Positions 2,808-57,275 of a stretch of DNA of 64,000 bases are shown here, one piece after another. A program made the position numbers and the translations under genes. Source of the DNA: Escherichia coli (GTDB lineage Bacteria; Pseudomonadota; Gammaproteobacteria; Enterobacterales; Enterobacteriaceae); the NCBI RefSeq assembly GCF_003334355.1, contig NZ_QOWP01000007.1; one strand, given 5' to 3'. The stretch's first letter is position 1. Each line of letters begins with the position of its first letter. The notes under the pieces are model-generated. The model was not told the DNA's origin and did no database searches. It was given only the letters and a program-made list of their open reading frames with translations.

Positions 2808-3503
2808 GTGAGCGAAATTAAAGACGTTATTGTTCAGGGGTTGTGGAAAAACAACTCTGCGCTGGTCCAGTTGCTCGGCCTTTGTCCTCTGTTGGCGGTC
2901 ACGTCCACTGCCACTAACGCTCTGGGTTTAGGACTTGCGACTACGCTGGTACTGACGCTGACCAACCTGACCATTTCGACGCTGCGTCACTGGACGCCAG
3001 CCGAGATCCGCATTCCCATTTACGTGATGATCATCGCCTCGGTGGTCAGCGCTGTACAGATGCTGATCAACGCCTACGCCTTTGGCCTGTATCAATCATT
3101 AGGGATTTTTATTCCGCTGATTGTCACTAACTGTATCGTTGTGGGCCGCGCTGAAGCCTTCGCCGCCAAAAAAGGTCCGGCGCTTTCGGCACTGGACGGC
3201 TTTTCAATTGGTATGGGCGCAACCTGCGCCATGTTCGTGCTGGGTTCACTACGCGAAATTATCGGCAATGGCACATTGTTTGACGGTGCAGATGCGCTGT
3301 TAGGTAGCTGGGCAAAAGTATTACGCGTGGAGATTTTCCACACCGACTCCCCTTTCCTGCTGGCGATGCTGCCACCAGGTGCATTTATTGGCCTGGGACT
3401 GATGCTGGCAGGAAAATACCTGATTGATGAAAGAATGAAAAAGCGCCGTGCTGAAGCAGCTGCAGAACGTGCATTGCCAAACGGTGAAACAGGGAATGTC
3501 TGA
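2808..3503 (+). CDS. rsxE: RsxE/RnfE membrane subunit (231 aa), GTG start
   Basis: Track ORF 2808..3503; hydrophobic NqrD/RnfE-like sequence; operon context. Confidence 0.9.
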
Positions 3504-4138
3504 TGAATAAAGCAAAACGCCTGGAGATCCTCACTCGCCTGCGTGAGAACAATCCTCATCCCACCACCGAGCTTAATTTCAGTTCGCCTTTTGAATTGCT
3601 GATTGCCGTACTGCTTTCCGCTCAGGCGACCGATGTCAGTGTTAATAAGGCGACGGCGAAACTCTACCCGGTGGCGAATACGCCTGCAGCGATGCTTGAA
3701 CTGGGCGTTGAAGGGGTGAAAACCTATATCAAAACGATTGGGCTTTATAACAGCAAAGCAGAAAATATCATCAAAACCTGCCGTATCTTGCTGGAGCAGC
3801 ATAATGGCGAGGTTCCGGAAGATCGTGCTGCGCTTGAAGCCCTGCCCGGCGTAGGTCGTAAAACAGCCAACGTCGTATTAAACACTGCATTCGGCTGGCC
3901 GACTATTGCTGTCGACACGCACATTTTCCGCGTTTGTAATCGTACTCAATTTGCGCCGGGGAAAAACGTCGAACAGGTAGAAGAAAAGCTACTGAAAGTG
4001 GTTCCGGCAGAGTTTAAAGTCGACTGCCACCATTGGTTGATCCTGCACGGGCGTTATACCTGCATTGCCCGCAAGCCCCGCTGTGGCTCTTGTATTATTG
4101 AAGATCTTTGTGAATACAAAGAGAAAGTTGACATCTGA
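3503..4138 (+). CDS. nth: Endonuclease III (211 aa)
   Basis: Track ORF; HhH-GPD region and C-terminal Cys cluster CIARKPRCGSCIIEDLC; start overlaps rsxE stop (ATGA). Confidence 0.93.
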   Translation: MNKAKRLEILTRLRENNPHPTTELNFSSPFELLIAVLLSAQATDVSVNKATAKLYPVANTPAAMLELGVEGVKTYIKTIGLYNSKAENIIKTCRILLEQHNGEVPEDRAALEALPGVGRKTANVVLNTAFGWPTIAVDTHIFRVCNRTQFAPGKNVEQVEEKLLKVVPAEFKVDCHHWLILHGRYTCIARKPRCGSCIIEDLCEYKEKVDI

Positions 4139-4748
4139 AGAAAAGGGGTAACACCGATTACCCCATTGATAACCTTTCTTTATCCTCTTTTAAAACATCT
4201 TTTTAACGTCAATGATGCCATTGCTTAGCGTTATCATCAGGTAATCCGTTTGCGGATAACCAAAAATGCAGGTTAATTGTTTTTTTAATAGCGAAATTTT
4301 CTATTCATTCGTGATCAAGATCACGATGCTGTCGCAATGTAAAAACATTGCAAGAATCAGGTTAAAATCATTTAAATTTACACACGCAACAAATATTGAC
4401 CTACAAAACATTACACTGGCTATTTTTCAGAAACTGGACTATCTCACTAGTAAAAACGCTAAATAGCAGAACATATCGCCGTTAAGCCATCCCCCCCCTC
4501 TCAGTGCAGTGAAAAAATCTGCCGTTACGTTTTTTGAAAAATTTAACGCTGGATAACATTTCCCGGAATGGTTGAATTCCCCGCCTCAGTTATATGTAAC
4601 AGATTATTACAAAGGACTTGTCTGAAAGTGCAAGATAGTGAACATTACCTGCCGTTTCCCCTCCCACTATAACAATTGCGCGTATGTTTTTTATACATAA
4701 CGCGAGAAAGCACCCCCGTTAATATGGGATGTAAAAAAAGAGGTAAAA

Positions 4749-6251
4749 GTGTCCACTGCAAACCAAAAACCAACTGAAAGCGTCAGTTTGAACGCTTTCA
4801 AACAACCGAAGGCGTTCTATCTCATCTTCTCGATTGAGTTATGGGAACGTTTTGGTTATTACGGCCTACAAGGAATTATGGCTGTTTACCTGGTTAAACA
4901 ACTGGGTATGTCTGAAGCGGATTCAATCACCCTTTTCTCTTCCTTTAGTGCCCTGGTTTATGGTCTGGTCGCTATCGGCGGCTGGTTAGGTGACAAGGTA
5001 CTGGGTACTAAACGCGTAATTATGCTCGGCGCTATTGTGCTGGCGATTGGTTATGCTCTGGTTGCCTGGTCTGGTCACGACGCCGGTATCGTTTATATGG
5101 GTATGGCGGCTATTGCGGTCGGTAACGGCCTGTTTAAAGCTAACCCGTCTTCTCTGCTTTCTACATGCTATGAGAAAAACGACCCGCGTCTGGACGGTGC
5201 ATTCACCATGTACTACATGTCCGTCAACATCGGCTCTTTCTTCTCTATGATTGCTACGCCGTGGCTGGCCGCGAAATACGGCTGGAGTGTTGCGTTTGCG
5301 TTGAGCGTTGTAGGCCTGCTGATCACTATCGTTAACTTCGCCTTCTGCCAACGCTGGGTTAAACAGTACGGTTCAAAACCAGACTTCGAGCCTATCAACT
5401 ACCGTAACCTGCTGCTGACCATTATTGGTGTTGTGGCACTGATCGCTATCGCCACCTGGCTGCTGCACAATCAGGAAGTTGCGCGTATGGCGCTGGGCGT
5501 TGTTGCCTTCGGTATCGTGGTTATCTTCGGTAAAGAAGCCTTCGCGATGAAAGGTGCTGCGCGTCGTAAAATGATCGTTGCCTTCATCCTGATGCTCGAA
5601 GCCATTATCTTCTTCGTGCTGTACAGCCAGATGCCAACGTCACTGAACTTCTTTGCGATTCGTAACGTTGAGCACTCCATTCTGGGTCTGGCCGTAGAAC
5701 CTGAGCAGTATCAGGCACTGAACCCGTTCTGGATCATCATCGGTAGTCCGATTCTGGCCGCTATCTATAACAAGATGGGCGATACCCTGCCGATGCCAAC
5801 CAAGTTTGCAATCGGCATGGTGATGTGTTCTGGTGCGTTCCTGATTCTGCCGCTGGGTGCGAAATTCGCGTCTGACGCTGGTATCGTGTCTGTAAGCTGG
5901 CTGGTCGCAAGCTATGGCCTGCAGAGCATCGGGGAACTGATGATCTCTGGTCTGGGTCTGGCAATGGTTGCTCAACTCGTTCCGCAGCGTCTGATGGGCT
6001 TCATTATGGGTAGCTGGTTCCTGACCACTGCCGGTGCAAACCTGATTGGTGGTTATGTTGCGGGTATGATGGCTGTGCCGGATAACGTTACCGATCCGCT
6101 GATGTCACTGGAAGTCTATGGTCGCGTATTCTTGCAGATTGGTGTCGCTACTGCCGTTATTGCAGTACTGATGCTGCTGACCGCGCCGAAACTGCACCGC
6201 ATGACGCAGGATGACGCTGCAGACAAAGCGGCGAAAGCAGCCGTAGCGTAA
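4749..6251 (+). CDS. dtpA: Proton-dependent di/tripeptide permease DtpA (500 aa), GTG start
   Basis: Track ORF; POT-family signature region [22 protein letters not shown]; strong terminator downstream. Confidence 0.93.
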
Positions 6252-6272: not shown

Positions 6273-6307
6273 AAGCCGCTAACTTTTCGTTAGCGGCTTT
6301 TTTTTTG
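6273..6307 (+). terminator. Intrinsic terminator of dtpA
   Basis: Hairpin AAGCCGCTAAC/GTTAGCGGCTT followed by T9. Confidence 0.85.
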
Positions 6308-46985: not shown

Positions 46986-47195
46986 TCATTTTACCAGTGC
47001 GTTAATGACGGTTTCCATCGCCTGCTTTTCCAGCTCACTGCGCTGAATGCGTTTATTGGCTAATGCTGTACGTAATACGCCTGCGATAACAATATGCTTT
47101 GGTTCCTGCCCCAGATCGCGCATTTCCAGCACAACTTTACCGACAACTCTGCACATTTCTCGGTACAGTTCATCCTCTTTTGTCCGATTTCCCAT
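46986..47195 (-). CDS. fumD: Small protein FumD/YdhZ (69 aa)
   Basis: Track ORF; isolated in AT-rich surroundings; sequence recalled as YdhZ. Confidence 0.8.
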   Translation of the reverse strand: MGNRTKEDELYREMCRVVGKVVLEMRDLGQEPKHIVIAGVLRTALANKRIQRSELEKQAMETVINALVK

Positions 47196-47509
47196 TCTTT
47201 ATACCTATTTATCATGCCAACTATCAGCATATATCAATCTAACCAATTAAACAAAAATCAAACAAAATCAGACAAATAACGCGATAAATTATTTTAACTG
47301 TAGCAATTGAGCGATGATATATTTATACACCGGATGAACTTTCACTTATCCTCACACTGACAACTTCGGCACCAGACGTTGCGCAAACAGCGAAGTTTTT
47401 GCGTAACCTTTTCCCTGGAACGTTAAATCTTTGATAACAATTTATTGTCTAACAAGTTGTATATTTTTTGAAACGCTGTTTTTGTTTTCCTTTTGGATTA
47501 ATTTCAGCG

Positions 47510-47515
47510 TATAAT
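47510..47515 (+). promoter_or_regulatory. Candidate pykF promoter -10 hexamer TATAAT
   Basis: Perfect TATAAT about 240 bp upstream of pykF ATG; no clean -35 identified. Confidence 0.4.
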
Positions 47516-47530
47516 GCGCGCCAATTGACT

Positions 47531-47546
47531 CTTGAATGGTTTCAGC
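47531..47546. promoter_or_regulatory. Candidate Cra (FruR)-like site CTTGAATGGTTTCAGC
   Basis: Imperfect dyad TGAAT-GG-TTTCA resembling Cra consensus, just downstream of the -10. Confidence 0.35.
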
Positions 47547-56440: not shown

Positions 56441-56485
56441 CGATTTACCTCACTTCATCGCTTTCAGCGTATAACAGCATGTTAG

Positions 56486-56500
56486 TGATAATGATTATCA
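56486..56500. promoter_or_regulatory. Fur box in suf operon promoter region
   Basis: TGATAATGATTATCA near-palindrome about 45 bp upstream of sufA start; matches Fur consensus GATAATGATAATCATTATC. Confidence 0.75.
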
Positions 56501-56723
56501 GTTCAACCCAGCAAACGCAGGGGCTTTACCGTAAAACATGCTTTTTGCCTGCTTTTAATAAGCATAGACCCTGATGTGTGGGTTAACAGGCACGCTAAGA
56601 ATTAGGTATCTCATTGTTAGATAATGGTTATTATCTAAGGAGCATTAAGGCTGTGATGAAAAAGAAAAAGTTGTATTGAAAATGACTATTTAAGAGATAG
56701 GTAAAAAAGTGCAGCGTTCAGAA

Positions 56724-56800
56724 ATAAGAAAACCCTTAAGTCTGTGCGACACAGGCTTAAGGGTTTCTACCCCATCCGGCGCTTATCTCCGGCACTCTCA
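56724..56800 (-). ncRNA. rydB: Candidate small RNA (RydB-like) ending at a reverse-strand intrinsic terminator; boundaries approximate
   Basis: Hairpin CCCTTAAGTCTGTG/CACAGGCTTAAGGG at 56733-56763 preceded on + strand by A-run (T-run on - strand); recalled that sRNA RydB lies between sufA and ydiH; exact ends not determinable here. Confidence 0.35.
56726..56763 (-). terminator. Reverse-strand intrinsic terminator in sufA-ydiH intergenic region
   Basis: 14-bp stem (one G-U pair) with A-run on + strand 5' side, i.e. T-run after hairpin on - strand. Confidence 0.6.
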
Positions 56801-56987
56801 GTGGCTTAGCTCTTGAAGGGGCGATAAGAATAATCTCATAAAGCTAACCCGCCGTTTTAACACAAACTGCGATTAGTATTATTTTTGAACAATATCAGGC
56901 GGTAGATAAGCAGTATTAAGAAGGTCATCGAACCTGGACGGAGGTTAATCCAGGTCGATTTGGCGAACTTGCGGCATTAAGTCAGGA

Positions 56988-57176
56988 TCAATGCACGCCC
57001 AGACGCCAGGCAAAGTAGATTTCTTCTTTTAATTCAGCAGAAGAGAGAGTAAGCAGGTCAGCAAATTCAAGTTCTAGTTGTTTCAGACGTTTGAGATATT
57101 GGGCAGGTGAAAGATTGCTCTGGTCACGGCGTAAAAATTCAATGGCCAGCTGGGTGGGATCAAGTTGAGTAGACAT
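56988..57176 (-). CDS. ydiH: Small protein YdiH (62 aa); track ORF trimmed to MSTQLDPTQL start
   Basis: C-terminal 62 codons of track ORF 56988..57257 match recalled YdiH. Confidence 0.78.
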   Translation of the reverse strand: MSTQLDPTQLAIEFLRRDQSNLSPAQYLKRLKQLELEFADLLTLSSAELKEEIYFAWRLGVH

Positions 57177-57275
57177 AGCATCCTCGCTTTTAGACAAGAC
57201 CTGCACAGTATACCACCGTTTACTGTGCAGATAATGACCAAAAGCAATATGCGTCACACTTTTCTGGTGACAACG

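Follow-up and report, generated by a model that had tools for sequence, protein, structure and literature searches.

Introduction

Phase-variable promoter tracts, among them the poly-C tract of Bordetella pertussis fim, the poly-G and poly-C tracts of Neisseria porA and opc and the TA repeats of Haemophilus hif, lie between the -35 and -10 elements or between an activator site and the -10, usually comprise nine or more units, are kept across strains and switch at high frequency. Indel hotspots at mononucleotide runs are ordinary in mismatch-repair-proficient E. coli, as mutation-accumulation studies have established. The Lrp-bound upstream regions of ilvIH and pap exemplify a further arrangement, in which multiple sites are phased over 150-300 bp. 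The gltBDF upstream region is also bound by Lrp (PMC1784095).

The segment analysed here controls dtpA (tppB), the gene of a proton-coupled di/tripeptide permease, at the transcriptional and post-transcriptional levels, and was already known to do so. The gene has long served as a model for OmpR control and, in the older Salmonella literature, for anaerobic, leucine and supercoiling control, negamycin may be taken up via its product, and Goh, Siino and Igo reportedly described dtpA/tppB as an OmpR-activated promoter in 2004. Its permease carries peptide antibiotics such as alafosfalin, and alafosfalin resistance has been traced to loss of dtpA activation. Expression of dtpA depends on OmpR and is lost in an ompR deletion; this regulation is reported to be insensitive to osmolarity and dependent on the level of OmpR.

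Here we describe the organization of this control region around a run of eight C residues. We consider it probable that the region consists of an nth terminator, a spacer, an array of conserved blocks at fixed spacing, an OmpR site with a weak promoter, and a leader, and that the C8 run is a derived allele of a mutational hotspot lying outside these elements.

Results

The window, by which we mean the entire 64,000-nucleotide stretch of DNA that was analysed, contains a 610-bp intergenic gap (4139-4748) between nth (3503-4138) and dtpA (4749-6251, with a GTG start). A first-pass annotation made from the sequence had described this gap as an unusually long, AT-rich leader/promoter region upstream of dtpA; its coordinates and composition were confirmed (GC 0.37 versus 0.506 for the whole window), and RefSeq genomes whose intergenic region is identical annotate the 500-aa open reading frame at 4749-6251 as DtpA. 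The remaining terms of that description hold in part: the gap is among the three or four longest in the window on a crude ORF-based list and is not unique in this respect, and it is indeed the regulatory region of dtpA (tppB), of which only ~96 nt (4653-4748) form a transcribed leader, the remainder being upstream DNA. Of 5426 complete E. coli genomes, 5424 have this nth-dtpA gap; RefSeq annotates nth and dtpA on either side of it and places no feature within. Compared to the MG1655 reference, the sole difference across the gap is an A-to-C substitution at 4492. A search of the gap against Rfam (E <= 10) returned best matches of 11-19 bits against gathering scores of 37-229, which is chance level. 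No frame in the gap stays open beyond 25 codons across 90% of species, and a hidden protein gene was set aside, as the 66-aa and 36-aa open reading frames of E. coli are broken in other species.

The core promoter could be placed from a published mutation. An A-to-T change at nth/dtpA (+503/-108) raised dtpA mRNA ~23-fold and occurred in three of four long-term stationary-phase cultures; this position is 4641 in the window, where the change converts AACATT to TACATT. The up-mutation thus fixes the -10 element at AACATT (4641-4646), with the -35 element TTGTCT (4618-4623) 17 bp upstream on the plus strand, and this sigma-70 promoter (4618-4646) is invariant across species. A simple sigma-70 consensus scan of 4000-4900 found zero promoters, a negative that carries no weight since the real promoter is too weak for such a scan. 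From peak centres and stated distances in two ChIP-exo tables, that is, from secondary sources, the dtpA transcription start site was approximated at ~4651-4653 on the plus strand, in agreement with the placement of the -10. The dtpA start is 1712769 in NC_000913.3. For mapping of published peaks we took the offset between NC_000913.2 and NC_000913.3 at dtpA to be 1976 bp, which agrees with the ompF row of the same table.

Immediately upstream of the -35 lies a tandem OmpR site on the minus strand (TGTAACAGAT/TATTACAAAG, box TGTAACAGATTATTACAAAG; 4595-4614, -58 to -39), identified from a ChIP-exo peak, a motif match and conservation. The OmpR peak (NC_000913.2 1710621-1710680, activator, -46.5) maps to 4577-4636, centred on the conserved tandem site, and the published motif KWWGTTACAT matches 4594-4603 on the minus strand beside the -35, which bears out the first-pass expectation that dtpA is under OmpR control. 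Within the 64 kb of E. coli sequence alone, the numbers of OmpR and CRP motif matches were not above chance, and support comes from cross-species conservation and the published ChIP data: the OmpR site is nearly invariant in ~70 species, and the distance from the OmpR box to a downstream GATAGT motif is 39 bp in 69 of 69. Bound at -58 to -39, OmpR recruits RNA polymerase to the weak promoter, a step shown by others. As in the OmpR promoters of ompF and ompC, tandem 10-bp GTTACA half-sites sit just upstream of a weak -35; the porin genes have three or four OmpR sites and dtpA a single tandem site, and dtpA further differs from the ompF/ompC type in that its GTTACAT half-site is on the strand opposite dtpA. 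The wider expectation of multiple regulators was likewise borne out. ChIP-exo binders of the gap are OmpR, GadX and YdcI, the GadX peak (NC_000913.2 1710534-1710554, repressor, -151, S/N 2.54) mapping to 4490-4510; Lrp is named as a dtpA regulator by citation; and GcvB acts post-transcriptionally.

Upstream of the promoter, conservation extends much further. We compared 80 dtpA loci from other Enterobacteriaceae, in all of which (80/80) nth is the upstream neighbour. In most species the gap spans 578-650 bp; one species has 741 bp, and nine (mostly Kosakonia) reach 1067-1188 bp. A conservation profile returned conserved blocks at 4269-4286, 4294-4304, 4310-4325, 4403-4450, 4462-4481, 4505-4522, 4538-4561, 4590-4678 and 4709-4748. 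Block A (CAGGTTAAT followed by a T-run, 4269-4286) and block B (AAATTTTCTAT, 4294-4304) are ~90-100% identical across ~70 species and are spaced by 27 bp in 62 of 70; judged by eye, block B presumably agrees with 13 of the 15 positions of the Lrp SELEX consensus. A perfect palindrome follows (CGTGATCAAGATCACG, 4310-4325; TGTGATCnnGATCAC in most other genera), which is like the CRP consensus TGTGA-N6-TCACA and lies ~335 bp upstream of the start site and 323 bp from GATAGT in 51 of 57 species, while in E. coli alone a CRP match with two mismatches is not above chance. An element of a CRP-dependent promoter would be expected at a class I or class II distance from a start site. Profile and alignment together delimit blocks D and E (ACATTACAC, ATTTTTCAGA, CTATCTCACT) and F (AGCAGAACATATCGCC, 4465-4480) within 4403-4481, and blocks G (CAGTGAAAAAATCTGCC) and H/I (AAAATTTAACGCTGGATAACATT) within 4505-4561. 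The minus strand of H/I reads TGTTATCCAGCGTTAA, which we take to resemble an ArcA direct repeat (4546-4561).

The spacing between these blocks is kept to an unusual degree. D to E is 17 bp and E to F 26 bp in the large majority of species; F to H, across the C-run, measures 73 bp in 59 of 59; the OmpR box lies 130 bp from F in 61 of 61 and 57 bp from H in 66 of 66. For the entire core, from CAGGTTAAT to GATAGT (4269-4633), 53 of 63 species have a length of 364 bp, five of 365 bp and one of 363 bp; four more values are artefacts of anchoring, so the proportion among correctly anchored species is 53/59. By comparison, the nth-proximal part varies from 101 to 428 bp and GATAGT is separated from the start codon by 110-117 bp, and the proximal spacings are kept in Kosakonia too. 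This fixed core length was unexpected, and we found no description of the length invariance (364 bp, 53/59) in the literature. Two candidate causes were rejected. Structured RNA does not account for it, as consensus folds were near zero energy (RNAalifold on 30 species over the 400 nt of 4264-4663 gave -1.05 and -3.9 kcal/mol for the two strands, with essentially no covariation), and neither does coding, as there is no conserved open reading frame of more than 25 codons. From the conservation pattern we infer that the ~ten blocks over 364 bp constitute a fixed-geometry array of protein-binding sites. CRP at the palindrome, Lrp at block B and ArcA at H/I are candidate binders by motif resemblance. 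As we picture it, a freely evolving spacer of ~105 bp separates the nth hairpin from the array, which opens at the CRP-like palindrome region and closes at the OmpR site abutting the weak promoter; the upstream blocks would bind further regulators in fixed geometry, and the spacer holding the C-run is free in sequence and fixed in length between species.

At the downstream end, the 96-nt 5' leader (4653-4748, plus strand) carries a conserved CCCCUCCC(A) motif at 4658-4666, two hairpins and a strong Shine-Dalgarno sequence (AGAGG, 4739-4743) before the GTG at 4749. Hairpin 1 (4679-4704) persists in 30 of 30 species although its sequence differs among them (mean z = -2.4), and hairpin 2 (4710-4732) has two pairs with compensatory changes; it is only in this leader that RNA from the gap forms conserved hairpins. 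In Salmonella, tppB/dtpA is a verified target of the R1 region of GcvB, and RIL-seq chimeras have been reported in E. coli. An RNAduplex comparison between dtpA and an approximate R1 sequence was uninformative (-25.6 kcal/mol against a shuffle mean of -24.8); the best compact pairing candidate covers codons 3-9 (4755-4775).

At the upstream end, the first-pass annotation had noted a terminator-like hairpin after nth. A stem-loop is present at 4145-4164 (GGGGTAA at 4145-4151, loop CACCGA, TTACCCC at 4158-4164; fold -11.2 kcal/mol, z = -2.1 on both strands), with a 7-bp stem (8 bp on the minus strand) that begins 7 nt past the nth stop codon. The terminator-like character is seen by consensus scan on the minus strand only, where TTTTCTT (UUUUCUU) directly follows the stem; no U-run was found after the stem on the plus strand, on which the tail (ATTGATAACC/AUUGAUAACCUUUCUUU) is T-poor. 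Different hairpins occupy the same place in other genera, a pattern expected of a terminator, and the hairpin is plausibly that of the rsx-nth operon. Its T-rich minus-strand tail in E. coli suggests that it may be bidirectional, and it may terminate weakly or in both directions. No supported minus-strand gene needing the hairpin was found. A CRP-dependent small transcript on the minus strand, running from ~4277 to the terminator (4164 to 4145), was set aside: other genera do not conserve its presumed -10 (TATTAA), and no part of the gap is less conserved or more variable in length than 4139-4268. The hairpin tail does fit such a transcript.

The C8 run noted by the first-pass annotation is present at 4491-4498 (plus strand; -162 to -155 relative to the dtpA start site), within a non-conserved spacer of 27 bp. 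Its occurrence by itself is not beyond chance, given that dinucleotide-preserving shuffles of the 64 kb yield about as many C8/G8 runs (mean 0.95; at least one in 54 of 100 shuffles) as the single one observed. K-12 (DH5alpha and the MG1655 reference) reads CACCCCCC at the tract. To type it among complete genomes we used queries of 67-70 nt with 30-nt K-12-like flanks, rather than 30-nt exact k-mers, because the BLAST low-complexity filter would mask the run, and counted identity of at least 99% as an exact match. The ~2937 genomes typed in this way leave out ~1050 with SNPs in the 30-nt flanks and ~1436 of other haplotypes without seedable flanks. The majority allele was CAC6 (equal to CACCCCCC; 2791 genomes), followed by C8 (62), CAC5 (54), CAC7 (18), C9 (8), C10 (2), C7 (1) and CAC8 (at least 1), with pure C-runs in 73 of the typed genomes in total. 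None of the other haplotypes holds a long run: the tract is CATCACCC in a B2-type strain, differing at several positions, CATCCCCC in another strain, AATCACCC in E. albertii and TATCCCCCC in two further Escherichia species. C8 is therefore no feature of the locus, as it had first been presented: it is a rare derived strain allele (62 of ~2937 typed) that, by sequence comparison, arose through a single A-to-C change at 4492 in the ancestral interrupted run CACCCCCC.

Comparison across strains, which had been proposed as a check, showed that tract length varies. Among the 2937 typed genomes, 84 (2.9%) have a non-canonical length; the share is 2.5% for alleles around the C6 run and 15% for those around the C8 run. 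In a SNP matrix of the 8-kb flanks, the pure-C alleles are spread over three or more local haplotypes. One group, which is K-12-like, comprises the window, 13C1065T, MB20, one C9 lineage and the C10 strains J3 and E1; ECCRA-119 (C8) has a B1-like haplotype that differs by 8 SNPs from an O104:H4 strain carrying CAC6 and by 57 from the window; and strain 67-1 (C9) is separate from both groups. Within the C9 lineage, EC20, AMR2684, 3502, 8600 and 361 are 0-1 SNPs apart in 8 kb, and EC22 was placed in it by identical C9 match coordinates; these six assemblies come from four countries (China, India, USA and Thailand) and are all C9. EC5 (C7) shows 0 SNPs in 8 kb against the C9 strains 3502, 8600 and 361, with C10 at 2 SNPs, although these are single-genome calls. 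The distribution over at least three flanking haplotypes identifies the site as a recurrent mutational hotspot, and together with the near-identical relatives it implies that the A-to-C change and the length changes each arose more than once. The substitution at the border lengthens the pure run from six to eight, after which replication slippage is more frequent; more slippage in a longer pure run would account for the existence of C7, C9 and C10 relatives.

At least part of this variation is real, as judged from the CAC7 tract of the Sanger-sequenced E24377A and the recurrence of C9 in six assemblies: the C8/C9 and CAC5/6/7 length differences, at least, are genuine. Homopolymer errors of long-read sequencing may lie behind the calls made in single genomes (C7, C10 and the CAC7 of one MG1655 re-assembly, where reference MG1655 has CAC6). 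The tract is most likely a neutral or weakly deleterious mutational hotspot and not a switch.

We weighed this reading against those in which the run has a function. Its position is mostly outside any regulatory element. The spacer scores 0-5 of 10 in conservation and holds unrelated sequence in other genera (~60 enterobacterial species compared), and the run lies ~97 bp from the distal edge of the OmpR site and 155-162 bp upstream of the start site; the one overlap is with the weak GadX ChIP-exo peak. The run was found neither in the core promoter nor between an activator site and the -10, the locations that mark phase variation, and it is not kept as a repeat across E. coli strains, the majority CAC6 being interrupted and the B2-type tract a different sequence. 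The run is contained in the -201 to +15 fragment that has been used as an OmpR-dependent reporter. It does sit between conserved blocks of fixed spacing.

That spacing underlies the first alternative, in which blocks A-F and the unit from block G to the OmpR site and promoter need a fixed distance and helical phase, such that slippage by 1-2 bp would alter dtpA expression and the tract would act as a spacing tuner or an emerging contingency locus. Because the spacer is length-invariant between species (73 bp from F to H), length changes there may not be neutral, and the length of the run may have an indirect geometric effect. The lengths from F to H, from F to the OmpR box and of the 364-bp core are locked across species, yet E. 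coli has variants in 84 of 2937 genomes, which are recurrent and in some cases found in near-identical backgrounds. Starvation cultures strongly select dtpA promoter mutations, and alafosfalin resistance follows loss of dtpA activation. On this reading, lineages would have a reversible yet heritable setting for the uptake of peptides and peptide antibiotics. However, the two commonest states, CAC6 and C8, are both of canonical length; the stability of C9 in six same-lineage assemblies and the spread of CAC5 through 54 genomes resemble ordinary inheritance and not rapid switching; runs of 6-8 units are short for phase variation in a repair-proficient species; and 110 bp separate the tract from the closest activator site with experimental support. 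We regard the tuner as unlikely. Its fullest form, in which a ~364-bp fixed-geometry assembly is frozen across Enterobacteriaceae and slippage of the E. coli run by 1-2 bp would re-phase the upstream half against the OmpR-promoter half, as a contingency locus acting via helical phasing, strikes us as decidedly unlikely; if true, it would produce lineages differing heritably in dtpA expression, peptide scavenging and peptide-antibiotic uptake.

A second alternative takes the C-rich stretch as part of an Escherichia-specific GadX operator, in which repression of dtpA by GadX under acid stress would be altered by the A-to-C substitution and by shifts in tract length. The K-12 peak on 4490-4510 puts the tract on or next to a site of reported binding, the peak is listed as repressing, and dtpA is reported to be GadX-repressed. 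The spacer is unconserved outside Escherichia, as expected for a genus-limited regulator. To our knowledge, GadX is confined to Escherichia and Shigella. Peak strength is low, however (S/N 2.54), and the published motif AKGKCTGWTWTTWWYMYVAK has no match with three or fewer mismatches anywhere in the intergenic region, its best by-eye alignment having five mismatches and falling on block G (4505-4524), off the C-run. Moreover, GadX sites are AT-rich, which makes a C-run atypical, and B2 strains differ here at several positions. A GadX operator at the run is, on these grounds, very unlikely. Any functional reading of the run has a low probability, kept alive by the frozen length of the spacer and the weak overlapping GadX peak.

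The remaining alternative, that all length variation (C7, C9, C10, CAC5 and CAC7) reflects long-read homopolymer miscalls over a tract of truly fixed length, is highly improbable: C7 in one genome, C10 in two genomes of one wastewater study and the CAC7 of the MG1655 re-assembly would suit it, but it is at odds with CAC7 in the Sanger-era E24377A, with C9 repeated across six assemblies from four countries, with CAC5 in 54 genomes, those listed including several STEC and O121 strains from different laboratories, and with the A-to-C substitution, which is not a homopolymer-length error.

Discussion

The C8 run itself matters little, as it is a rare polymorphism, at chance level for the window, in the documented promoter of dtpA/tppB. 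Of greater consequence is the size and rigidity of the region around it, which go far beyond the single OmpR site usually drawn: ~ten blocks over 364 bp, with spacing kept in some 59 species, point to a multi-protein architecture that would be new to the description of this promoter. Given the selection on the promoter during starvation and the uptake of antibiotics through the permease, natural variants that alter dtpA expression would matter for fitness and for drug uptake.

In its overall layout, the region is like the upstream regions of ilvIH, pap and gltBDF, in that many short blocks extend over ~360 bp before a weak promoter, with the spacing kept and the sequence between blocks free, and dtpA, too, has been reported to be a target of Lrp; it differs from them in that Lrp, CRP and ArcA are predicted occupants of the dtpA blocks.

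The C-run shares with the tracts of fim, porA, opc and hif that it is a non-coding tract upstream of a surface or transport gene, that its length apparently differs among close relatives and that it lies between conserved elements of otherwise fixed spacing. Unlike those tracts, it is 155-162 bp upstream, is interrupted in most strains, remains unchanged within lineages and is absent as a repeat in B2 strains and in other genera. The likeness to ordinary mononucleotide-run hotspots is closer: the share of off-mode lengths rises with run length (2.5% at C6, 15% at C8), and the border substitution that turns CAC6 into C8 is as expected from transient misalignment. We favour the reading of the tract as an ordinary mononucleotide-run hotspot, whose sole oddity is the species-invariant length of the spacer in which it sits.

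A block array of fixed length upstream of dtpA

Within the 610-bp intergenic gap between nth and the di/tripeptide permease gene dtpA (tppB) (4139-4748), conserved sequence blocks alternate with spacers of free sequence from 4269 to 4633, a span of 364 bp. Of the 59 enterobacterial species with correct anchor placement, 53 share exactly this array length and the others deviate by ±1 bp; its flanks within the same gap vary in length by tens to hundreds of bp. Neither RNA structure nor an ORF explained the constant length of the array. One strain, GZ2408C, carries the IS66-family element ISCro1 (tnpA and tnpB; locus L002, 1295-4000) at approximately 4350/4351, an insertion that splits the far-upstream blocks from the remainder of the dtpA control region.

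Probable flanking terminators and neighboring loci

In the hairpin directly following the nth stop codon (4145-4164), it is the minus strand rather than the nth strand that provides the T-rich tail (TTTTCTT). Such a tail would suit a transcript arising inside the gap and heading to nth; no transcript running from the gap towards nth was supported. On the other side of dtpA, the short dtpA-gstA gap contains a T9 run (6298-6306), presumably belonging to the dtpA terminator as its tail. The coding length of rsxC, a gene of the rsx-nth operon that lies before window position 1, is strain-dependent (2127, 2181, 2223 and 2319 bp; strain loci L090-L105), which suggests an in-frame repeat polymorphism, and the gene is a pseudogene in O121 RM8352. 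Elsewhere in the window, a crude ORF-based gap list returned two long stretches lacking a large ORF, 46565-47535 (971 bp, 36% GC) and 56441-57275 (835 bp), which may contain small genes or RNAs.

Promoter, leader and a CRP-like palindrome

A published A-to-T change, selected under starvation and raising dtpA mRNA ~23-fold, corresponds to window position 4641, where the inferred -10 element starts (AACATT to TACATT); the natural dtpA promoter is therefore kept weak. The dtpA leader (4653-4748) contains two hairpins, one of them kept in 30 of 30 species despite differing sequences, and a CCCCUCCC motif with the potential to base-pair with the Shine-Dalgarno sequence. Farther upstream, a perfect 16-bp palindrome, CGTGATCAAGATCACG (4310-4325), which reads TGTGATCnnGATCAC in the majority of genera, is a candidate CRP-like site by its similarity to the CRP consensus. 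The palindrome lies ~335 bp upstream of the dtpA transcription start site, a distance that is excessive for classical CRP activation of the dtpA promoter.
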